A DNA stretch of 37,894 bases from a virus (taxonomy: Duplodnaviria > Heunggongvirae > Uroviricota > Caudoviricetes). Where the stretch lies: the IMG/VR virus record IMGVR_UViG_2606217109_000004; one strand, written 5' to 3'. A program made the position numbers and the translations under genes. Below the pieces are notes generated by a model, which worked only from the letters and a program-made list of their open reading frames with translations, did no database searches and had not been told where the DNA came from. Positions 1 through 37,894 of this stretch are shown one piece after another (position 1 is the stretch's first letter; the number at the start of each line of letters is the position of its first letter).

Positions 1-1152
1 TCAATCTGTCAATGCAACACCCCTTTCAATTATCTCTTTCGGTGTTTTGAACTTCAGTGTCTTTCTCGGTCTGTTGTTTAGCTGAGCAGCAACCAGATCT
101 AGTTCATGTTGAGTATATTGGGCAAGACATGTCTTTTTAGGAAAGTACTGCCGAATTAGCCCATTTGTGTTCTCATTTGTTCCCCGCTGCCAAGGACTCT
201 GAGGATCGCAGAAGTAAACTTTAACGCCGGTGCTGACAGTAAATTCTAGATGTCTGGCCAGTTCCATTCCTCTGTCCCATGTCAGTGATTTTCTGAGTTC
301 TGACGGTAAACTCAGGAATTTGTCGGTAAGAGCCTGATTTACTGAGACAGAATCTTTGCCCCTGAGTCTAAGGATGATCGTATAACGTGATTTTCGGTCT
401 ACAAGTGTGGCTATATGAGAGTTTTTTGTACCTGAGACTAAATCGCCCTCCCAATGTCCCAGAGAGCGTCTGTTATCGATATTTCGGGAACGTTCGTGAA
501 TTGGTGTTCCGTTCACTATGTTAATCGTACCTCTTTCGCCTTTGCGGGTATGACGCCTGCCATGGCGAAGGCTATGCGACCGTCGCAGATGCTGTATATT
601 CAGGTGGTGTAGCGCTTCACGGCTACGAAAGTACAGCGTTTTATAAATTGTCTCAGGTGATATTCGCAGCGTTTTTTGACGTGGTTTTGTTCGCCTTAAC
701 CATCCTGATATTTGCTCTGGAGACCATTTCATCTCCAGCTTTTCCAGAACAAGCTTTCGCAATGGTAAATTTTGATCCAGTAAGCACGGTTTTGGCCTTT
801 TCGCCATTCTGTTGGCTCGGTTATTAGCATCAACAGCTTTGTAATAGCGTCTGCCCCGATTACGCTGAACTTCACGTGAGATCGTCGAAGGACTGCGATT
901 CAGCGCAGTAGCTATCGCACGAATGCTCATTTTGGCTGACAAACCAGCTCGTATCTCCTCGCGCTCAGACAGTGTCAGGTGAGCTACAGCCCGCTTACGC
1001 TCATGGGGTTTTATGCCGCCAGTATCCCTTAACATAGTGAAGATCGTTCCGGGTTTTGAACCCAGGATATTCGCTATTTCACTGAAGCCTGTTCCGTTCT
1101 TCCATAGTTCAAAAACAGAGGCTTTTTCCTCTGCTGTAAATGTTCGTCTCAT
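1..1152 (-). CDS. insI: IS30 transposase
   Basis: 383-aa ORF with N-terminal HTH and C-terminal DDE-type region; translation recognised as IS30 InsI. Confidence 0.92.
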   Translation of the reverse strand: MRRTFTAEEKASVFELWKNGTGFSEIANILGSKPGTIFTMLRDTGGIKPHERKRAVAHLTLSEREEIRAGLSAKMSIRAIATALNRSPSTISREVQRNRGRRYYKAVDANNRANRMAKRPKPCLLDQNLPLRKLVLEKLEMKWSPEQISGWLRRTKPRQKTLRISPETIYKTLYFRSREALHHLNIQHLRRSHSLRHGRRHTRKGERGTINIVNGTPIHERSRNIDNRRSLGHWEGDLVSGTKNSHIATLVDRKSRYTIILRLRGKDSVSVNQALTDKFLSLPSELRKSLTWDRGMELARHLEFTVSTGVKVYFCDPQSPWQRGTNENTNGLIRQYFPKKTCLAQYTQHELDLVAAQLNNRPRKTLKFKTPKEIIERGVALTD

Positions 1153-1214
1153 TCAAAAAACCTCCGCAACCCCATGTTTTCACATAACTGTTGCATTGAC
1201 CAATTGAATCTACA
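1..1214 (-). mobile_element. IS30 insertion sequence, nearly full length (cut by window start); terminal inverted repeat ends at about 1214
   Basis: 383-aa ORF matches IS30 transposase; sequence at 1170-1214 is the reverse complement of the IS30 terminal repeat as I remember it (TGTAGATTCAATTGGTCAATGCAACAG...); element abuts cII-homologous DNA at 1215. Confidence 0.9.
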
Positions 1215-1466
1215 AGTGCGTTGCTTAACAAAATCGCAATGCTTGGAACTGAGAAGACAGCGGAAGCTGTGGGAGTTGATAAGTCGCAGATCAGCAGGTG
1301 GAAGAGAGACTGGATTCCCAAGTTCTCAATGCTGCTTGCTGTTCTTGAATGGGGGGTCGTTGACGACGACATGGCTCGATTGGCGCGACAAGTTGCTGCG
1401 ATTCTCACCAATAAAAAACGCCCGGCGGCAACCGAGCGTTCTGAACAAATCCAGATGGAGTTCTGA
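1215..1466 (+). pseudogene. cII: cII transcriptional activator, 5'-truncated by the IS30 insertion
   Basis: Translation ...LLNKIAMLGTEKTAEAVGVDKSQISRWKRDWIPKFSMLLAVLEWGVVDDDMARLARQVAAILTNKKRPAATERSEQIQMEF matches lambda CII from about residue 16 onward; the first ~15 codons are replaced by the IS30 end. Confidence 0.85.
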
Positions 1467-1498
1467 GGTCATTACTGGATCTATCAACAGGAGTCATT

Positions 1499-2398
1499 AT
1501 GACAAATACAGCAAAAATACTCAACTTCGGCAGAGGTAACTTTGCCGGACAGGAGCGTAATGTGGCAGATCTCGATGATGGTTACGCCAGACTATCAAAT
1601 ATGCTGCTTGAGGCTTATTCGGGCGCAGATCTGACCAAGCGACAGTTTAAAGTGCTGCTTGCCATTCTGCGTAAAACCTATGGGTGGAATAAACCAATGG
1701 ACAGAATCACCGATTCTCAACTTAGCGAGATTACAAAGTTACCTGTCAAACGGTGCAATGAAGCCAAGTTAGAACTCGTCAGAATGAATATTATCAAGCA
1801 GCAAGGCGGCATGTTTGGACCAAATAAAAACATCTCAGAATGGTGTATCCCTCAAAACGAGGGAAAATCCCCTAAAACGAGGGATAAAACATCCCTCAAA
1901 TTGGGGGATTGCTATCCCTCAAAACAGGGGGACACAAAAGACACTATTACAAAAGAAAAAAGAAAAGATTATTCGTCCGAGAATTCTGGCGAATCCTCTG
2001 ACCAGCCAGAAAACGACCTTTCTGTGGTGAAACCGGATGCTGCAATTCAGAGCGGCAGCAAGTGGGGGACAGCAGAAGACCTGACCGCCGCAGAGTGGAT
2101 GTTTGACATGGTGAAGACCATCGCGCCATCAGCCAGAAAACCGAATTTTGCAGGGTGGGCTAACGATATCCGCCTGATGCGTGAACGTGACGGACGTAAC
2201 CACCGCGACATGTGCGTGCTGTTCCGCTGGGCATGCCAGGACAACTTCTGGTCCGGTAACGTGCTTAGCCCGGCCAAACTCCGCGACAAGTGGACCCAGC
2301 TCGAAATCAACCGTAACAAGCAACAGGCAGTCGTGACAGCCAGCAAACCAAAACTCGACCTGACAAACACAGACTGGATTTACGGGGTGGATCTATGA
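1499..2398 (+). CDS. O: Replication initiator protein O
   Basis: 299-aa translation matches lambda O; contains the ori iterons internally. Confidence 0.95.
   Translation: MTNTAKILNFGRGNFAGQERNVADLDDGYARLSNMLLEAYSGADLTKRQFKVLLAILRKTYGWNKPMDRITDSQLSEITKLPVKRCNEAKLELVRMNIIKQQGGMFGPNKNISEWCIPQNEGKSPKTRDKTSLKLGDCYPSKQGDTKDTITKEKRKDYSSENSGESSDQPENDLSVVKPDAAIQSGSKWGTAEDLTAAEWMFDMVKTIAPSARKPNFAGWANDIRLMRERDGRNHRDMCVLFRWACQDNFWSGNVLSPAKLRDKWTQLEINRNKQQAVVTASKPKLDLTNTDWIYGVDL
1846..1976. promoter_or_regulatory. Lambda-type origin of replication: four ~19-bp iterons (ATCCCTCAAAACGAGGG-like) followed by an A/T-rich region
   Basis: Four tandem imperfect repeats tccctcaaaacgaggg / tcccctaaaacgaggg / tccctcaaattggggg / tccctcaaaacaggggg, then cacaaaagacactattacaaaagaaaaaagaaaagatta, inside O. 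Confidence 0.8.
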
Positions 2399-3096
2399 AA
2401 AACATCGCCGCACAGATGGTTAACTTTGACCGTGAGCAGATGCGCCGGATCGCCAACAACATGCCGGAACAGTACGACGAAAAGCCGCAGGTACAGCAGG
2501 TAGCGCAGATCATCAACGGTGTGTTCAGCCAGTTACTGGCAACTTTCCCGGCGAGCCTGGCTAACCGTGACCAGAACGAAGTGAACGAAATCCGTCGCCA
2601 GTGGGTTCTGGCTTTTCGGGAAAACGGGATCACCACGATGGAACAGGTTAACGCAGGAATGCGCGTAGCCCGTCGGCAGAATCGACCATTTCTGCCATCA
2701 CCCGGGCAGTTTGTTGCATGGTGCCGGGAAGAAGCATCCGTTATCGCCGGACTGCCAAACGTCAGCGAGCTGGTTGATATGGTTTACGAGTATTGCCGGA
2801 AGCGAGGCCTGTATCCGGATGCGGAGTCTTATCCGTGGAAATCAAACGCGCACTACTGGCTGGTTACCAACCTGTATCAGAACATGCGGGCCAATGCGCT
2901 TACTGATGCGGAATTACGGCGCAAGGCTGCCGATGAACTGACCTGTATGACAGCGCGAATTAACCGTGGTGAGGCGATCCCTGAACCAGTAAAACAACTT
3001 CCTGTCATGGGCAGAAGACCTCTAAATCGTGCACAGGCTCTGGCGAAGATCGCAGAACTCAAAGCTAAGTTCGGACTGAAAGGAGCAAGTGTATGA
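2395..3096 (+). CDS. P: Replication protein P (DnaB helicase loader)
   Basis: 233-aa translation matches lambda P; start overlaps O stop (ATGA). Confidence 0.95.
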   Translation: MKNIAAQMVNFDREQMRRIANNMPEQYDEKPQVQQVAQIINGVFSQLLATFPASLANRDQNEVNEIRRQWVLAFRENGITTMEQVNAGMRVARRQNRPFLPSPGQFVAWCREEASVIAGLPNVSELVDMVYEYCRKRGLYPDAESYPWKSNAHYWLVTNLYQNMRANALTDAELRRKAADELTCMTARINRGEAIPEPVKQLPVMGRRPLNRAQALAKIAELKAKFGLKGASV

Positions 3097-3383
3097 CGGG
3101 CAAAGAGGCAATTATTCATTACCTGGGGACGCATAATAGCTTCTGTGCGCCGGACGTTGCCGCGCTAACAGGCGCAACAGTAACCAGCATAAATCAGGCC
3201 GCGGCTAAAATGGCACGGGCAGGTCTTCTGGTTATCGAAGGTAAGGTCTGGCGAACGGTGTATTACCGGTTTGCTACCAAGGAAGAACGGGAAGGAAAGA
3301 TGAGCACGAACCTGATTTTTAAGGAGTGTCGCCAGAGTGCCGCGATGAAACGGGTATTGGCGGTATATGGAGTTAAAAGATGA
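3093..3383 (+). CDS. ren: Ren protein
   Basis: 96-aa translation matches lambda Ren; overlaps P stop. Confidence 0.9.
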   Translation: MTGKEAIIHYLGTHNSFCAPDVAALTGATVTSINQAAAKMARAGLLVIEGKVWRTVYYRFATKEEREGKMSTNLIFKECRQSAAMKRVLAVYGVKR

Positions 3384-3456
3384 CCATCTACATCACTGAG
3401 CTAATAACAGGCCTGCTGGTAATCGCAGGCCTTTTTATTTGGGGGAGAGGGAAGTC

Positions 3457-3897
3457 ATGAAAAAACTAACCTTTGAAATTCGATCTCCAGCACATCAGCA
3501 GAACGCCATTCAAGCTATCCAGCAAATCCTTCCAGACCCAACCAAACCAATCGTAGTAACCATTCAGGAACGCAACCGCAGCTTAGACCAGAATCGAAAG
3601 CTTTGGGCTTGCCTTGGTGACGTCTCTCGTCAGGTTGAATGGCATGGTCGCTGGCTGGATGCAGAAAGCTGGAAGTGCGTTTTTACAGCAGCATTAAAGC
3701 AGCAGGACGTTGTTCCTAACCTTGCCGGGAATGGCTTTGTGGTAATAGGCCAGTCAACCAGCAGGATGCGTGTAAGCGAATTTGCGGAGCTATTAGAGCT
3801 TATACAGGCATTCGGTACAGAGCGTGGCGTTAAGTGGTCAGACGAAGCGCGACTAGCTCTCGAATGGAAAGCGCGATGGGGAGATCGGGCTGCATGA
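3457..3897 (+). CDS. ninB: NinB (Orf-family recombination mediator)
   Basis: Translation MKKLTFEIRSPAHQQNAIQ... matches lambda NinB; start chosen at MKKLT (the six-frame ORF begins 18 nt upstream). Confidence 0.9.
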   Translation: MKKLTFEIRSPAHQQNAIQAIQQILPDPTKPIVVTIQERNRSLDQNRKLWACLGDVSRQVEWHGRWLDAESWKCVFTAALKQQDVVPNLAGNGFVVIGQSTSRMRVSEFAELLELIQAFGTERGVKWSDEARLALEWKARWGDRAA

Positions 3898-5644: not shown

Positions 5645-5729
5645 AGTCAGAGATAACAATCAACTAATACTGTTTTGTTGATTTTTGCTTGTAATTGGCG
5701 TTCTGGTCTGATTTTTGTGGAGTAAGTTG

Positions 5730-6113
5730 ATGCGTGATATTCAGATGGTTCTTGAGCGTTGGGGAGCGTGGGCGGCTAATAATCATGAAGATGTGACCTG
5801 GTCGTCCATTGCCGCCGGTTTTAAGGGATTAATTACTTCAAAAGTAAAATCTCGCCCGCAATGTTGTGACGATGACGCGATGATTATTTGCGGGTGCATG
5901 GCCCGTCTGAAAAAGAACAACAGCGATTTGCACGATTTATTAGTAGATTATTATGTAGTCGGTATGACATTCATGTCACTGGCAGGTAAGCATTGCTGCT
6001 CTGATGGTTATATCGGGAAAAGGTTACAGAAGGCTGAGGGCATAATTGAAGGGATGTTAATGGCATTAGATATCCGGTTAGAGATGGATATCGTTGTTAA
6101 TAACTCTAATTAA
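5730..6113 (+). CDS. quuD: Late-gene antiterminator Q (DLP12 QuuD-type)
   Basis: Translation [34 protein letters not shown]... matches E. coli QuuD (127 aa). Confidence 0.85.
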
Positions 6114-6301: not shown

Positions 6302-7384
6302 TTAGAACTGGTAAACCATACCTACAGCAACGATATCATCGGTAGCAACGCCAGATGCTTTCGTGAAATCGCTCTTATCAATCAGGTTGATTTTGTAATC
6401 AACAAAAGTGGACATATTTTTGTTGAAGTAATAGGTTGCACCTACATCAATATATTCAACCAGGTCCTGATCACCCCACGCACCCAAGTCTTTTCCTTTA
6501 GATTGCAGGTAAGCAACGGACGGACGCAGACCGAAGTCGAACTGATATTGTGCAACTACTTCGAAGTTTTGTGCTTTGTTGGCAATATGGTTATTACCAA
6601 AAACAGTCATGTTCTGGGTTTCAGAATAGGTGGTAGCCAGATAGATGTTGTTCGCATCATATTTCAGACCAGCTGCCCATACTTCAGCATTTTGACCAGA
6701 TGCATTCAGGCTGTTGTTACCGTAGATAACCTGATTATTAGTGCGGTCAGATTTAGCATAGGTTGCACCTACACCGAATCCTTCATACTCATAAGTAGTG
6801 GAGAAACCGAAACCATCACCATTAGCTTCAGTTACGTCAGTGCGGTCATTTTTACCCTGATACTGAGCAGCAAAGTTCAGACCATCAACCAGACCAAAGA
6901 AGTCGTTGTTACGATAAGTTGCAACACCAGTGGTGCGACCAGTCATGAACACATCTGTTTGGGTCCAGGTATCGCCACCGAATTCTGGCAGAACGTCAGT
7001 CCACGCACCGATGTCGTATGCTACACCGTAGTTACGGCCGTAATCGATTGAGCCGTAGTCACCGAATTTCAGGCCTGCAAATGCAAGACGGGTTTTGTCT
7101 TTGGAGGAACCTTGAGATTCAGCGCGGTTGCCTTTGAATTCATATTCCCACTGACCGAAACCAGTCAGTTGATCGTTGATTTGGGTTTCACCTTTGAAGC
7201 CAAGACGGGCATAAGTAGTATCACCATCATCTGCATCATTAGAGGAGAAGTAGTGCTTAGCATTAACTTTCCCGTACAGATCCAGCTTGTTACTGTCTTT
7301 ATTATAAATTTCAGCTGCCTGAGCAGACATCGCCATCAGTACTGATGCAGCTACAGCAGAAATTGCCACTGTTAATTTTTTCAT
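6302..7384 (-). CDS. nmpC: Outer-membrane porin NmpC (OmpC/PhoE family), apparently intact
   Basis: Translation [23 protein letters not shown]|AEIYNKD... with signal peptide and C-terminal ...VYQF typical of general porins; start taken at MKKLT (7384). Confidence 0.9.
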
Positions 7385-7811
7385 CGTGAGCCCTTTTTTT
7401 GAACTATTATTAAAAAATGATGTCACTGCGCGATAAATATTCATCTAATCAATGTGATTATTTCAAGATGTAAGTTTTGGTTTCTCATTTGATTTGTGAA
7501 GTAGATCTCTATTTTTATCTGAACTTTTTCTATCGAATCCTATTCATGGCTCTTGGCTGAATAAAAATAAATCTATTAGCCAATTTATATTAATGGCTGT
7601 TATTTATAAGTGCTCTATAATTTGAAGGTTCAATTTAAATCGGCTAAAAATAACGCTGGAAATTATTTGTTGGTTATTTGTTGAGATTTGCTTATGTATT
7701 TGTAGTGGTGTTTTCAATACTCGGTAGCATTCTCGCAAATATCATTTAGTGGTTTACGTACGTAAAAAATTGGTTATGCTGTTAAGAGTGGTTACTTCGT
7801 CACACAGCTTA

Positions 7812-26760: not shown

Positions 26761-30162
<3,402 letters not shown>

Positions 30163-30886: not shown

Positions 30887-33800
30887 GTGAATATGGCAGT
30901 AAAGATTTCAGGTGTACTGAAAGACGGCACAGGAAAACCGGTACAGAACTGCACAATCCAGCTGAAAGCAAAACGTAACAGCACCACGGTGGTGGTGAAC
31001 ACGCTGGCCTCAGAAAATCCGGATGAAGCCGGGCGTTACAGCATGGACGTTGAGTACGGGCAGTACAGCGTTATTCTGTTGGTGGAGGGATTCCCGCCGT
31101 CACATGCCGGGACCATCACCGTGTATGAAGATTCCCGACCCGGTACGCTGAATGATTTTCTCGGTGCCATGACGGAGGATGATGCCCGTCCTGAGGCACT
31201 GCGCCGTTTTGAACTGATGGTGGAAGAGGTGGCGCGTAACGCGTCCGCGGTGGCACAGAACACGGCAGCCGCGAAGAAGTCAGCCAGCGATGCCGGCACA
31301 TCAGCCCGTGAGGCGGCAACCCATGCGACTGATGCTGCAGGCTCAGCAAGCGCAGCCAGCACGTCAGCCGGACAGGCCGCGTCGTCGGCTCAGTCAGCAT
31401 CTTCCAGCGCAGGAACGGCATCAACAAAGGCCAGTGAAGCATCGAAAAGTGCTGCTGCTGCAGAGTCCTCAAAAAGCGCGGCAGCTACCAGTGCCGCTGC
31501 GGCGAAAACGTCAGAAACGAATGCGGCAGCGTCACAACAATCAGCAGCCACTTCTGCATCCGCCGCGACCACGAAGGCGTCAGAAGCAGCCACCTCAGCC
31601 CGGGATGCGGCGGCCTCAAAAGAGGCAGCGAAATCATCAGAAACGAACGCATCCTCGAGCGCCAGTAGTGCCGCTTCCTCGGCAACGGCGGCAGGCAATT
31701 CCGCGAAGGCGGCAAAGACGTCTGAGACAAACGCCAGGTCTTCTGAAACGGCAGCGGAACAGAGTGCCTCAGCTGCGGCAGGCTCAAAAACAGCGGCTGC
31801 GTCGTCTGCCAGTGCAGCGTCAACAAGTGCCGGGCAGGCCTCAGCCAGTGCCACCGCCGCCGGAAAATCGGCAGAAAGCGCCGCATCGTCTGCTTCAACA
31901 GCCACAACGAAGGCTGGCGAAGCCACTGAACAGGCCAGCGCAGCAGCGAGGTCTGCTTCCGCAGCGAAGACATCCGAAACGAACGCGAAAGCGTCGGAAA
32001 CCAGCGCAGAATCCTCAAAAACGGCTGCCGCATCGTCAGCCAGTTCGGCGGCGTCATCGGCATCATCGGCGTCTGCTTCAAAAGATGAGGCGACCAGACA
32101 AGCGTCAGCAGCGAAGAGCAGCGCCACGACGGCATCCACGAAGGCGACAGAGGCTGCTGGCAGTGCGACGGCGGCAGCTCAGAGCAAAAGTACGGCGGAA
32201 TCCGCGGCAACGCGCGCCGAGACAGCAGCTAAACGGGCAGAGGATATTGCATCCGCCGTGGCGCTTGAGGATGCAAGTACGACGAAAAAGGGGATAGTAC
32301 AGCTCAGCAGTGCGACCAACAGTACGTCTGAAACGCTGGCGGCAACGCCAAAGGCAGTAAAATCAGCCTATGACAATGCAGAGAAACGTCTGCAGAAAGA
32401 CCAGAACGGCGCTGATATACCCGATAAGGGATGCTTCCTGAACAACATTAACGCGGTCAGTAAAACAGACTTTGCTGATAAGCGTGGTATGCGTTATGTG
32501 CGGGTTAACGCTCCTGCAGGTGCAACATCTGGAAAATATTACCCTGTTGTTGTTATGCGTTCTGCTGGCTCAGTAAGCGAACTGGCATCAAGAGTCATTA
32601 TCACCACGGCAACGCGAACCGCAGGCGATCCGATGAATAACTGCGAGTTTAACGGATTTGTTATGCCTGGTGGCTGGACTGACAGGGGGCGTTATGCTTA
32701 TGGAATGTTCTGGCAATATCAAAACAATGAACGAGCCATTCACTCAATAATGATGAGTAATAAGGGCGATGATTTGCGCTCTGTGTTCTATGTTGATGGC
32801 GCTGCTTTCCCTGTTTTTGCGTTTATTGAAGATGGCCTGTCAATATCCGCACCTGGTGCTGATCTCGTTGTTAATGATACGACCTATAAGTTTGGGGCAA
32901 CAAATCCGGCGACTGAATGTATCGCGGCGGACGTTATCCTTGATTTTAAGAGTGGGCGTGGTTTTTATGAGTCTCATTCGTTAATCGTTAACGATAACTT
33001 GTCGTGCAAAAAACTTTTTGCCACAGACGAAATTGTAGCGCGTGGTGGTAATCAGATTCGAATGATAGGTGGGGAGTATGGGGCATTATGGCGTAATGAT
33101 GGCGCTAAAACTTACCTGCTGCTTACCAATCAAGGTGATGCTTATGGTGGCTGGAATACATTAAGACCGTTTGCTATTGATAACGCAACCGGCGAACTGG
33201 TTATTGGAACCAAACTGTCCGCAAGTCTGAACGGTAATGCATTAACAGCAACAAAGCTGCAAACGCCAAGACGGGTTTCTGGTGTTGAGTTTGATGGTTC
33301 CAAAGATATTACTTTAACCGCCGCGCATGTGGCTGCTTTTGCCAGAAGGGCAACGGATACATATGCCGATGCGGATGGGGGCGTTCCCTGGAATGCCGAA
33401 TCAGGCGCTTATAAGGTCACCCGCTCTGGCGACAGCTATATTCTGGTTAACTTCTATACCGGAGTCGGAAGTTGCCGGACCTTGCAGATGAAGGCGCATT
33501 ACAGAAATGGTGGTCTGTTCTACCGTTCTTCAAGAGACGGTTATGGTTTTGAGGAAGACTGGGCAGAAGTTTATACCTCGAAAAATCTTCCACCAGAAAG
33601 CTACCCAGTCGGTGCACCAATCCCGTGGCCATCAGATACCGTTCCGTCTGGTTATGCCCTGATGCAGGGGCAGACTTTTGACAAATCTGCTTACCCGAAA
33701 CTTGCAGTTGCTTATCCGTCAGGCGTGATCCCTGATATGCGTGGCTGGACGATTAAGGGCAAACCTGCCAGTGGTCGGGCCGTATTGTCTCAGGAACAGG

Positions 33801-34291
33801 ACGGCATTAAATCGCATACCCACAGCGCCAGCGCATCCAGTACGGATTTGGGGACGAAAACCACATCGTCGTTTGATTACGGCACTAAATCCACGAATAA
33901 CACTGGTGCGCATACCCATAGTTTAAGTGGCAGCACGAATGCAGCTGGTAATCACAGCCATAGAGATGGCCGTCGATTTAACCCCAGTGTTTTTAAAGAT
34001 ACTTATCAATATGGTTATACAAGCTCAGGTCAAAATACCTGGGGTGTACAAGGCTCAGTAGGTATGTCTACGGGGTGGTTAGCTAATACCAGTACAGATG
34101 GTAATCATAGCCACTCACTGTCCGGCACAGCAGCATCTGCAGGTGCACACGCGCATACTGTCGGTATTGGTGCTCATACGCACTCCGTTGCGATTGGTTC
34201 ACATGGACACACCATCACCGTTAACGCTGCTGGTAACGCGGAAAACACCGTCAAAAACATCGCATTTAACTATATTGTGAGGCTTGCATAA
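30887..34291 (+). CDS. stf: Side tail fibre protein Stf, enlarged mosaic form
   Basis: N-terminus ([29 protein letters not shown]...) and C-terminal His-rich receptor-binding region match lambda Stf; central part is a long Ala/Ser/Thr-rich repeat tract plus a divergent lower-GC domain. Confidence 0.9.
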
Positions 34292-34872
34292 TGGCATTCA
34301 GAATGAGTGAACAACCACGGACCATAAAAATTTATAATCTGCTGGCCGGAACTAATGAATTTATTGGTGAAGGTGACGCATATATTCCGCCTCATACAGG
34401 TCTGCCAGCAAACAGTACCGATATTGCACCGCCAGATATTCCGGCTGGCTTTGTGGCTGTTTTCAACAGTGATGAGGCATCGTGGCATCTCGTTGAAGAT
34501 CATCGGGGAAAAACCGTCTATGACGTGGCTTCCGGCGACGCGTTATTTATTTCTGAACTTGGCTCGTTACCGGAAAATGTCACCTGGTTATCGCCGGAAG
34601 GGGAATATCAGAAGTGGAACGGCACAGCCTGGGTGAAGGATACGGAAGCAGAAAAACTGTTCCGGATCCGGGAGGCGGAAGAAACAAAAAACAACCTGAT
34701 GCAGGTAGCCAGTGAGCATATTGCGCCACTTCAGGATGCTGCAGATCTGGAAATCGCAACGGAGGAAGAAAACTCGTTGCTGGAATCCTGGAAAAAGTAT
34801 CGGGTGTTGCTGAACCGTGTTAATACAACAACTGCACCGGATATTGAATGGCCAGTAGCACCTATAGGGTAA
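34291..34872 (+). CDS. tfa: Tail fibre assembly protein Tfa
   Basis: 193-aa translation matches lambda Tfa ([37 protein letters not shown]...). Confidence 0.9.
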
Positions 34873-34965
34873 ATTCGTAATGATTACCTAAATACGTTAT
34901 TCTTTTGTTCAAAAAGTGATTTTGCTATAGGTAAGGAGTATGTTCTTGGATTAAGAATAAAAAAT

Positions 34966-34988
34966 CGCCATGAAAGAGCTTCATGGCG
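34966..34988 (-). terminator. Rho-independent terminator for a leftward transcript coming from the AT-rich spacer
   Basis: Perfect 9-bp stem CGCCATGAA / TTCATGGCG with 5-nt loop; on the minus strand it is followed by ATTTTTTATT. Confidence 0.5.
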
Positions 34989-35731
34989 AGTACATAAACG
35001 TACAAAATGTGATGAAAGTAGAGTGGCGTAAGCCACTATATTAAGATATGACAATAGCGAAGAAAAGTAAATAACATTTTATGGACGTTTAATTGTTAAT
35101 TATAAAAACTAGAGTGCCCGATATTGTTTATCTTGCTTTAAAATAATGTACTCAAACCAAATTTTTGAGCTAAAAGCTCAAATAATATAAATGCAATGAT
35201 AATGTTTAATAAGACAATTAGCTTGCTTTGTATTTTCATTTCGGAATACTGTTAAGTAACTTTGATGACCCTAACAATAGATCGGAATTTTCTTAGAGTC
35301 AATGGTCACTGTTTTTGCTTGCAAAGCAAATGTTTTGGTGGTTATAAGTTGTCTTAATATAGTCACGCATGCAACTTGTTCCATGCGGAGATTAAAGATT
35401 GGAATATAACGCGAAGATGGAATTAAATTACATTTGCAATAATCAATTTATTATTACTCAATAATTACCGATATTATTATTGTAAATTAATCATTAGAGT
35501 GCAAAAAGAAATGTAACGGCAAAATAAGAGGACGATAGCTGAGAAAAAAGCGTGCTTTCCCAATCTGGGGCAAATCACGTCTGAATGACACCTGAAAACA
35601 GGTGGTAGCCTCAAGAAGGCTTGGAATATTCTTCTTTAATGTTATGTAATTCATTGATTTTTCGTGTACGATTTTAAGACATTTATTCCAAGAAAAATTT
35701 TTAACTCTTTGATTTTTAGACTCTGTATCAT

Positions 35732-35793
35732 CGGTCTCGAAAACCGGAGTGGGGGCAACTCTACCGGGGGTTCAAATCCCCCTCTCTCCGCCA
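35732..35793 (+). other. 3' fragment (anticodon loop to CCA) of a tRNA-Ser(CGA) gene: candidate att core / prophage boundary
   Basis: CGGTCTCGAAAACCGGAGTGGGGGCAACTCTACCGGGGGTTCAAATCCCCCTCTCTCCGCCA equals the 3' ~62 nt of E. coli serU-type tRNA-Ser as I remember it (one mismatch); the 5' half of the tRNA is absent and replaced by AT-rich DNA. Confidence 0.75.
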
Positions 35794-36377
35794 CTTTATC
35801 AATGACTTATCTCCCGACTTCCCGCCTTGCTTTTCCTAAACAGAACAATCGTAGAATATTCTTGAAGGGTTAGATCGTCACTGTTTTCTGTTCGATACTG
35901 TGACATTCAGCACTTGATTCGCTATGGATCTGACAGGAAGGTTTTGAGCGAAAATTTGCAGTTATTCAGTCGTTTTCTTATCGGTCACCATTATTCTTTT
36001 AGACATTGATCCTACAAAGCTGCCGCAAAGTTGGTGGTGGGAACTGAAGTTGCGTAGAGAAGGGGTCAATACCCGGAGGCAAACATGGGCTGGCAAAAGT
36101 GTAGCGGTATTAGGCGCAGCTATTTAGCCTAGTTATGTTTTATGAAAACTTGATATCATATAAGTGTCTTACTTATTGGCTGTAAATAAGTTTTTCCTAA
36201 GGAATTGTTTCTTGAGTATCATTTGTAACTGTAACGGAATTTATAATCCTTTGCTTTATTGTTACGGTATTTTTTATCACACCCTATTTTTTATGTGGTT
36301 TTTTATACTGAAGTTTGGCAAAGTGAACTTTATATGCATATACTTCATCCTGGTTTCAGTTAAGTTGGGTGGATGAT

Positions 36378-37121
36378 ATGGCAACTACATGTTCAGTTAT
36401 ATTGATTTTGGAGTCCTTTGATGTTTATTTCGGAAAAGAGAGTGTGTTTCTGGAGAGAGGTTCATCTGTACTTGTCGACTCTAGCTCTAGAGATTTTTTC
36501 CTGACATATCCTGAAAGAGTGATAGTGGCGGATTTTGGCGCTGAGTTTATTAGTCGCTATTTGAAAGCTAATAACTTAAGGGATATTTCTGATTGTAGGG
36601 AATATCCATCTTATTTAAAAATAAACTTTGCTGACTTCAGTTTAATTAAAGGATTAATTAGTTGGGCTAATCACTGTGCTGAATACATAGAAATTTTTGA
36701 TGAGTCTATTGCTTTTACATGTCTCTCTGCATTTTCTTCTGAAAAACAATTTGGAGTATTTCTGTTTGAATGTTTGAAAAGCACAGGGGCTAAAGTTAAA
36801 ACGATTATTCATACGGATTTATCTGCACCATGGCGTCTTAAGGATATATCATCAAGATTATATCTCAGCGAAAGTTTACTAAAGAGGAAATTGAAAGAAG
36901 AGGGGGTATCATTCAGTAAGATCATACTTGATGAGAGGATGCAAATGGCTGAATATTTACTCAGCACTCGTTGTTATCCTATTAGTAAAGTAGCTAAGGT
37001 CTGTGGTTATGCCAGTGTCTCATACTTTACTTATGTATTTAGACGTTATTTTGGTGTTTCTCCAAGTCAATACTCTCAGAGCAGTTCAGAAAGTAAAATT
37101 CTTACTCACCAGGGAATCTGA
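36378..37121 (+). CDS. AraC/XylS-family transcriptional regulator (AppY/YdeO/GadX-like subgroup), AT-rich acquired gene
   Basis: 247-aa ORF with C-terminal double-HTH AraC signature (...SKVAKVCGYASVSYFTYVFRRYFGVSPSQY); GGTGGA ribosome-binding site before ATG at 36378; GC well below the phage genes. Confidence 0.8.
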   Translation: MATTCSVILILESFDVYFGKESVFLERGSSVLVDSSSRDFFLTYPERVIVADFGAEFISRYLKANNLRDISDCREYPSYLKINFADFSLIKGLISWANHCAEYIEIFDESIAFTCLSAFSSEKQFGVFLFECLKSTGAKVKTIIHTDLSAPWRLKDISSRLYLSESLLKRKLKEEGVSFSKIILDERMQMAEYLLSTRCYPISKVAKVCGYASVSYFTYVFRRYFGVSPSQYSQSSSESKILTHQGI

Positions 37122-37630
37122 TCATTGTTCTTGCCCCCTTATTTCCAGACAGGGGGTGTATCTTAAGTTAACGTTACCCGCTGACGTCGATATTCTCGCG
37201 GAGAGCGATAACCCAGCGCACTGTGCGGATGGTTTTCATTGTAATGTTCGATCGCCACTGCAAGATTATGCAATGCCGTTCTTACATTCGGTTTCGGCAT
37301 GAACGCGGTGTAGTCTTCCTTCATCGTTTTCACGAACCTTTCTGCCATTCCATTACTCTGAGGACTGCTGATTGCCGTTGTGCAGGGCTCCAGATTCAAC
37401 TCTCTGGCGAACTGCCATGTTTCATGCGCTCTATACGCTGAACCGTTATCTGTCAGCCACTGGATGGACTGTTCCGGTACTTTATCGCCAAAGCGTTTTT
37501 CTATCGCTCCTAACATGACATCCTGCACTGTCGCTTTATCGTAACCTCCCGTGCTTGCGGCCCAGTCTATGGCTTCACGATCGCAACAGTCCAGGGCGAA
37601 CGTAACACGCAGTTTTGAATCGCCACGGGT
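37122..37630 (-). mobile_element. IS3-family (IS2-like) element fragment: terminal inverted repeat plus 3' part of the orfB transposase; 5' part missing
   Basis: Minus-strand frame open from about 37630 to stop at 37163 encodes ...[38 protein letters not shown]...WLTDNGSAY...[11 protein letters not shown]...[19 protein letters not shown] (second D and E of the DDE triad); IS2-like end TTGCCCCCTTATTTCCAGACA at 37128-37150. Confidence 0.7.
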
Positions 37631-37678
37631 TTAACAGACACCTCAGAGTCATTTAAGATGGCTTAAAGAGAGGTGCCC

Positions 37679-37894
37679 ATGAGCGGTAAGCGTTATCCCG
37701 AAGAGTTTAAAACTGAAGCAGTCAAACAGGTTGTTGATCGCGGTTATTCTGTTGCCAGCGTTGCAACACGTCTCGATATCACCACCCACAGCCTTTATGC
37801 CTGGATAAAGAAGTACGGTCCGGATTACTCCACTTTTTCATCAAGCCAATCCGCCCACCACTGCATCATTTCTCTGCGCTTATCGAGATACTGA
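37679..37894 (+). CDS. IS3-family transposase OrfA (HTH protein), second IS copy, possibly frameshifted; cut by window end
   Basis: Translation MSGKRYPEEFKTEAVKQVVDRGYSVASVATRLDITTHSLYAWIKKYGPD... is a typical IS3-family OrfA N-terminus; RBS AGAGGTG upstream; C-terminal 20 aa atypical. Confidence 0.65.
   Translation: MSGKRYPEEFKTEAVKQVVDRGYSVASVATRLDITTHSLYAWIKKYGPDYSTFSSSQSAHHCIISLRLSRY

Follow-up and report, generated by a model that had tools for sequence, protein, structure and literature searches.

Does an insertion sequence lodged in a regulatory gene reduce a lambda-like prophage to a replication-dead remnant, or does it leave an inducible phage without CII? This question is raised by the left end of a 37,894-nucleotide stretch of Caudoviricetes DNA (IMG/VR record IMGVR_UViG_2606217109_000004; hereafter, the window), where a copy of IS30 adjoins a fragment of cII next to the replication genes O and P. 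The initial annotation described a domesticating lesion, in which IS30 would both abolish CII and, through polarity, attenuate O and P in a prophage with an intact late region. The joint reading proposed here, which is considered fairly probable, is that IS30 made a target-driven hop into codon 15 of cII, and that the result would be a CII-null allele, a polarity relieved by the phage N protein and an inducible prophage of the clear-plaque type.

The element at the left end is recognizable both by its coding content and by its terminus. The minus-strand ORF combines, in Pfam, an N-terminal helix-turn-helix with a DDE (rve) core, the combination that characterizes the IS30 family, and IS30 ends at window position 1214, where its left inverted repeat (IRL) reads …GACCAATTGAATCTACA; position 1195 within this repeat is the K-12-type A, most natural IS30 copies having a G there. 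On the other side of the boundary, tblastn aligns residues 15–97 of lambda CII to positions 1215–1463 with 100% identity and no gaps, the stop codon ending at 1466, and the Pfam profile Phage_CII (PF05269, 5.9e-42) is matched at profile positions 15–91, with positions 1–14 absent. The boundary is a specific insertion junction and chance similarity is excluded. The arrangement agrees with the initial annotation in that IS30 disrupts cII with its transposase gene in the opposite orientation and truncates the 5′ part of the gene, although not at about codon 16 with the start and first 15 codons gone, as had been proposed: the break falls in codon 15, and codons 1–14 are missing. Codon 15 (AGT) stands whole on the window side because of the 2-bp target duplication. 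The coordinates of these features, and of those that follow them in the replication region, are collected in Table 1.

Table 1. Features of the IS30–cII junction and of the adjoining replication region, in window coordinates.
Feature	Position	Strand	Basis or remark
IS30 copy	1..1214	-	Right inverted repeat truncated at its tip, by 7 bp in the window and by 5 bp in the source contig
IS30 transposase ORF, 383 aa, intact	1..1152	-	ORF list; Pfam HTH_38 (1.6e-23) and rve (4.1e-14)
C-rich, G-poor stretch (C/G 1.6-2.3), candidate Rho-loading region	1081..1200	+ (pR transcript strand)	Composition; inference
IS30 left inverted repeat (IRL), tip adjoining cII	1189..1214	-	Sequence reading
AG, right copy of the 2-bp target-site duplication (lambda 38402-38403)	1215..1216	+	STLEFF_47 flanks, lambda coordinates
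cII 3′ fragment, codons 15-97 and stop	1215..1466	+	tblastn; Pfam Phage_CII
oop antisense RNA unit (promoter pO, oop, terminator), intact	1410..1524	-	Promoter-like site 1524->1496, terminator 1442->1415; collinear with lambda
Gene O, 299 aa, 99.7% to lambda O, own GGAG ribosome-binding site	1499..2398	+	ORF list, tblastn
Gene P, 233 aa, 97.9% to lambda P, intact	2395..3096	+	ORF list, tblastn

In the source genome, the window begins at base 3 of contig JNRY01000029.1 (GCA_000704945.1), which in turn lacks the outermost 5 bp of the right IS30 tip; as the contig starts within the element, the left junction is not assembled there. Relatives carrying the same junction were searched for with an 87-aa PGAP-style junction ORF that starts in the IRL, which matched four contigs, the source contig and three relatives. 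Among 5426 complete E. coli genomes, the junction is present in a single one, STLEFF_47 (NZ_CP058874.1), and an insertion in the opposite orientation at this site is present in none; the junction pattern was not found in GTDB representative genomes nor in phage records. The O protein of the window is too widespread to serve as a marker (5062 blocks are indexed for it, and IS30 is absent from all 10 matches listed), and the 81-aa and 75-aa forms of the cII fragment, used as queries, matched solely mis-called lambda genes or contigs starting at cII codon 24. Several unrelated draft or metagenome contigs (L026–L032) begin at, or one base before, the ATG of that codon, which is probably a repeat or mosaic boundary of co-resident lambdoid prophages unconnected to IS30.

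A full 1221-bp IS30, bounded by imperfect terminal inverted repeats of about 26 bp, with both TGTAGATTCAAT tips occupies the identical junction in contig LM996403.1 (L017) and in the STLEFF_47 locus (L016), where RefSeq labels the element 'IS30-like element IS30 family transposase'. On the left of the element in STLEFF_47, the sequence runs from cro through nutR to the cII start, reading ATG to GAG AG and ending …ATCGAGAG, and is followed by the right inverted repeat (IRR) of IS30; on the right, the IRL is followed by AGTGCG…. The AG duplicated at lambda 38402-38403 is the 2-bp target duplication expected of IS30. The second IS30 end, the duplication and the cro-proximal piece of cII, which the initial annotation had looked for to the left of the contig, are thus all present in this proxy, and its order cro, nutR, cII 5′ part, IS30, cII 3′ part, O and P bears out the position of cII in the pR operon, after cro and ahead of O-P; of this operon, the window itself has the O-P side alone. 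The STLEFF_47 prophage lies at att-lambda, with ybhC on one side and ybhB-bioA on the other, and is annotated with int, xis, exo-bet-gam, cIII, N, a lambda-type cI and cro; the closest complete relative is a lambda-immunity prophage. Its right end, composed of tfa, an AraC-family regulator, IS3-family fragments and attR, has the same order as window positions 34291–37894. In the window, this cargo is situated in the interval from the tail-fibre assembly gene to the expected attR, with the AraC-family regulator at 36369–37121 (plus strand; Pfam HTH_AraC/HTH_18) and the IS3-family transposase fragments at 37163–37528 (minus strand) and 37673–37894 (plus strand). The cII-resident IS30 of STLEFF_47 carries, in turn, a nested IS2 (L001 12627-13957) with a 5-bp AGTGT duplication, by which the annotated IS30 transposase is cut to 370 aa.

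The first consequence of the insertion, the loss of CII, stands as initially claimed. The fragment is not a complete ORF, the window having neither codons 1–14 nor the ribosome-binding site; an in-frame stop lies just upstream of it, at 1197–1199 within the IRL, and sequence reading revealed no Shine-Dalgarno motif ahead of its internal TTG (1221) or ATG (1239). Since the start, the ribosome-binding site and codons 1–14 are cut off from codons 15–97, no functional CII is possible, and the insertion demonstrably knocks out CII as far as can be judged from the sequence. The course of events would begin with a resident 1221-bp IS30 hopping into codon 15 of cII in a lambda-like prophage and duplicating the AG; the 5′ part of cII (start, ribosome-binding site and codons 1–14) would stay on the side of cro and nutR, as would the CII-binding box of the promoter pRE. 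This box, at cII codons 3–8, remains on the cro side, along with the 5′ 44 bp of cII and the ribosome-binding site. CII is needed just to establish lysogeny and is dispensable for prophage maintenance, induction and lytic growth. Because CII acts solely while lysogeny is established, a lysogen that already exists should bear the lesion at almost no cost.

Whether the prophage has been disabled in its lytic functions is a separate matter, and the genes of the window point to the contrary. Positions 1215–3897 are collinear with lambda 38402–41084, gap-free and with 97.8% identity, from which it follows that O, P, ren and NinB are intact, and the four ori-lambda iterons, mapped from lambda 39034–39118 through this ungapped alignment, are intact at about 1847–1931. 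ORFs for a Q-family antiterminator (5715–6113), holin, lysozyme and Rz are present, as are ren and nin; all the lambda head and tail proteins from Nu1 through J, together with Lom and Tfa, give full-length, stop-free alignments, in agreement with the late region having been called fully intact, and cos is contiguous in the window. The integration functions int/xis/att and the contiguity of the arms are intact in STLEFF_47 and possibly broken in LM996403.1. If the left arm resembles that of STLEFF_47, genome size with IS30 is estimated at about 48.7 kb, which falls within the lambda packaging range of about 38–51 kb. Among the genes checked, none for replication, lysis or morphogenesis is lost or disrupted, whereas a defective prophage would display such a loss or disruption. 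As every lytic function checked is intact, including O, P and ori, and neither induction nor lytic growth requires cII, the sequence gives no support to the term "domesticating lesion". The side tail fibre ORF (30887–34291, plus strand) is full length, with 1134 aa, where the lambda reference record annotates two tail-fibre ORFs, orf-401 and orf-314. A Gram-negative porin gene (6302–7444, minus strand; Porin_1, 3.7e-153) is located between the Q antiterminator and the lysis genes, as an opposite-strand moron.

The alternative closest to the initial annotation is that IS30 is so strongly polar that O and P are too low for replication, the prophage being effectively domesticated despite its intact late genes. 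Transcripts from pR that enter IS30 carry a CII′-IS30 read-through ORF of 43 codons and then about 1.13 kb of untranslated RNA, with the C-rich, G-poor stretch of Table 1 just before the cII fragment and O; IS elements are classically polar, and terminators and polarity of IS30 itself are said to have been described by Dalrymple and Arber in 1986. A Rho-dependent polarity on O-P is, then, plausible if N is lacking. Nevertheless, a simple consensus scan of positions 1–1600, of a kind that could miss IS30 terminators, returned no intrinsic-terminator-like site on the plus strand of IS30, which is the strand traversed, and O has a ribosome-binding site of its own. In addition, nutR, with boxA and boxB intact, lies upstream of the insertion in STLEFF_47, where the N gene is annotated, and N-modified RNA polymerase is processive and resists both Rho-dependent and intrinsic termination (PMC12360218). 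With nutR and N upstream, as in STLEFF_47, N antitermination should suppress the polarity, and O and P would presumably still be expressed once N is loaded at nutR, the adjacency of nutR and N in the source being assumed from that relative. Suppression of IS polarity by N can be incomplete, and Rho-dependent polarity is not reliably predictable from sequence. Taken together, a polarity on O-P strong enough to domesticate the prophage, as initially annotated, is unsupported and on balance unlikely, and the corresponding alternative is rated improbable as a whole. A promoter within IS30 reading into O was also considered, and the scan revealed none on the plus strand.

The behaviour predicted under the joint reading can be laid out from these elements. 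After induction, pR transcripts would cross IS30 antisense to the transposase gene, and translation would end after the 43-codon CII′-IS30 peptide; given the long untranslated run beyond it, Rho-dependent polarity on O-P is expected only if N is absent or weak, and with N loaded at the upstream nutR, both O and P would be made despite IS30. The most likely phenotype is that of an inducible prophage that would release clear-plaque, cII-null phage, and not that of a replication-dead remnant. The nearest precedents are the lambda mutations r14 (IS1) and r32 (IS2), reportedly described by Brachet et al. in 1970 and Fiandt et al. in 1972: in each, an IS lies in the cII region and exerts polarity on O-P, yet plaques are said to form given good N function. 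As in r14 and r32, an E. coli IS interrupts the pR operon after cro/nutR and ahead of O-P, with cII inactivated and a transcriptional barrier set before the replication genes. The present case differs in that the element is IS30, at codon 15, in natural prophages and not in laboratory phage stocks, and in that its polarity is putative. With regard to what defines insertions of this type, an IS lies between pR/cro and O-P in STLEFF_47, but no terminator was found in the traversed orientation in the scan.

A second alternative places the defect elsewhere, in the continuity of the genome: IS30 would be a rearrangement breakpoint in the source, the arm from the cII fragment through O-P to the late genes being parted from int-xis-N-cI-cro, and the prophage would be split and defective thereby, not by polarity. 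The source contig does end within IS30, and LM996403.1 provides a possible example, since on the other side of its IS30-cII junction (L017 8520-10003) lie an IS911-type orfA (…ILKKAT) and nrdA-nrdB-yfaE-inaA, with no matching 2-bp duplication. The left flank of this contig is exactly the commonest IS30 target half-site of the flank set described below, and its IS30 is unlike the other cII-resident copies solely in the IRR-proximal 464 bp, a pattern that may reflect recombination between two IS30 copies or, as well, an assembly chimera across the 1.2-kb repeat. On the opposite side, both arms are contiguous in STLEFF_47, with a perfect AG duplication, and the right end of the window matches the att-lambda prophage of that strain, so that a split prophage in the source seems unlikely. 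Within the joint reading, rearrangement belongs to the later fate of the insertion, its main long-term cost being that IS30 would act as portable homology for more IS insertions and rearrangements; IS30-mediated rearrangement would be a likelier route of decay than polarity, and LM996403.1 may be one relative to display it. The O gene of LM996403.1 also has a 44-bp iteron-like insertion and is split into ORFs of 209 and 124 aa.

That the insertion was selected, either by lessening O/P-dependent killing on spontaneous derepression or by stabilizing lysogeny through leftward transcription reaching anti-cro and cI, is very improbable: the transposase gene does point the same way as pRE, the orientation is the same in the four junction contigs out of four, three different right-arm backbones share the junction, and IS insertions in P have been recovered among survivors of lambda replicative killing (PMC4926192), but the rarity of the junction among complete E. 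coli genomes speaks against strong selection, a shared orientation is equally explained by single descent or an asymmetric target, and the outward TTGACA in the IRR has no usable -10 at 16–18 bp in the STLEFF_47 flank, on which ground a hybrid outward promoter from the IRR into cro/cI was discarded.

The position of the insertion, codon 15, is accounted for by the element itself. Lambda DNA has a known IS30 hot spot, LHS, located at 33244–33498 with its centre at about 33290, according to a passage of PMC9333248 that cites Olasz et al. 1998; LHS as such is ruled out as the explanation of the site, since it does not lie in cII. A position weight matrix was constructed from 64 unique IS30 half-site flanks, drawn from 120 metagenome contigs (L033–L152) that contain the IRL tip, and represents redundant natural sites; flanks from viral contigs and GTDB genomes, with too few or contaminant matches, were left out. 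Read outward from the tip, the half-site consensus is R-Y-N-G-C-N-T-T-N-T-T-N-A. When the matrix was applied to the 48,462 scored dinucleotide positions of lambda, LHS (33290), serving as a positive control, ranked 4th and the cII site (38402) ranked 5th; across 11 variants of the matrix, the ranks ranged from 2 to 59 for LHS and from 1 to 52 for the cII site. The two halves of the cII target are uneven, the right one (AGTGCGTTGCTTAA) being strong, with 9.3 bits, and the left one weak, with 1.7 bits. As the cII site lies near the top of the matrix, the target preference of IS30 itself explains the point of insertion, which is set, on the matrix prediction, by this long and degenerate preference. 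The matrix scores the two sites about equally, and at both the target in lambda is long, degenerate and partly palindromic, with 2 bp duplicated on IS30 insertion. LHS, in the kil/cIII region of the pL operon, was defined by experiment, whereas the cII site, at a distance of 5.1 kb, is matrix-predicted and combines a strong half-site with a weak one. Position 27414 of lambda, in the b region near attP, outscores both LHS and the cII site in most matrix variants and is a further predicted IS30 target.

The four junctions could go back to one event or to several. The STLEFF_47 locus (L016) and contig L019 are identical across 10 kb, and the window is identical to both up to position 1864, bar one IRL base, past which mosaic blocks diverge by 1–3%; LM996403.1 diverges from 93 bp past the junction and at three IS30 positions. 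The A or G at IRL position 1195 was dropped as a marker of shared descent, the G form being that of the majority of natural IS30 copies. A single old insertion followed by lambdoid mosaic recombination, or independent hits on a hot spot, would both fit these patterns, and the rarity of the junction and the lack of the opposite orientation among complete genomes are likewise compatible with either. The stronger proposal, that codon 15 of cII is a second natural IS30 hot spot similar to LHS, hit repeatedly and independently in one orientation in different lambdoid prophages, and that wild lysogens keep making cII-null prophages in this way, is offered tentatively, as possible although rather doubtful. 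If true, cII-null prophages would, on induction, release phage that almost never lysogenise, of the clear-plaque type. A matrix derived from natural flanks that recovers the published LHS and predicts cII as an equally good target would, in that case, explain recurrent cII-null alleles in lambda-like prophages.

In general terms, the locus is an ordinary and well-precedented mutation, a target-directed IS30 insertion producing a cII-null allele in a near-lambda prophage. Lambdoid prophages riddled with IS elements are exemplified by the K-12 cryptic prophages and, as Asadulghani et al. are said to have reported in 2009, by the prophage pool of O157 Sakai. The locus resembles them in the build-up of host IS elements, in nested IS copies and in IS-mediated rearrangements, and differs from them in that IS30 at cII is the one IS seen within the 37.9 kb of the window and all the lytic genes checked are intact, which would correspond to an early stage of decay, if to decay at all. 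What is new is limited to another example of a well-known type of mutation and to a testable prediction, that of a cII codon 15 hot spot comparable to LHS, and the significance beyond annotation is small. For annotation, when an IS is found in a regulatory gene of a prophage, the prophage should be called "domesticated" only once the lost function has been identified and upstream antitermination by the phage has been considered. The flank set yielded two further observations on IS30 in nature. In the metagenome contigs L033–L152, the commonest natural target is the orfA of IS3-family elements, at the sequence coding for …ILKKA(T), with GGCTAC|ACCGCGCTCTTGATGTC and variants of it, and the two flanks of one IS30 are often mismatched, as might result if copies are often exchanged or assemblies are chimeric.
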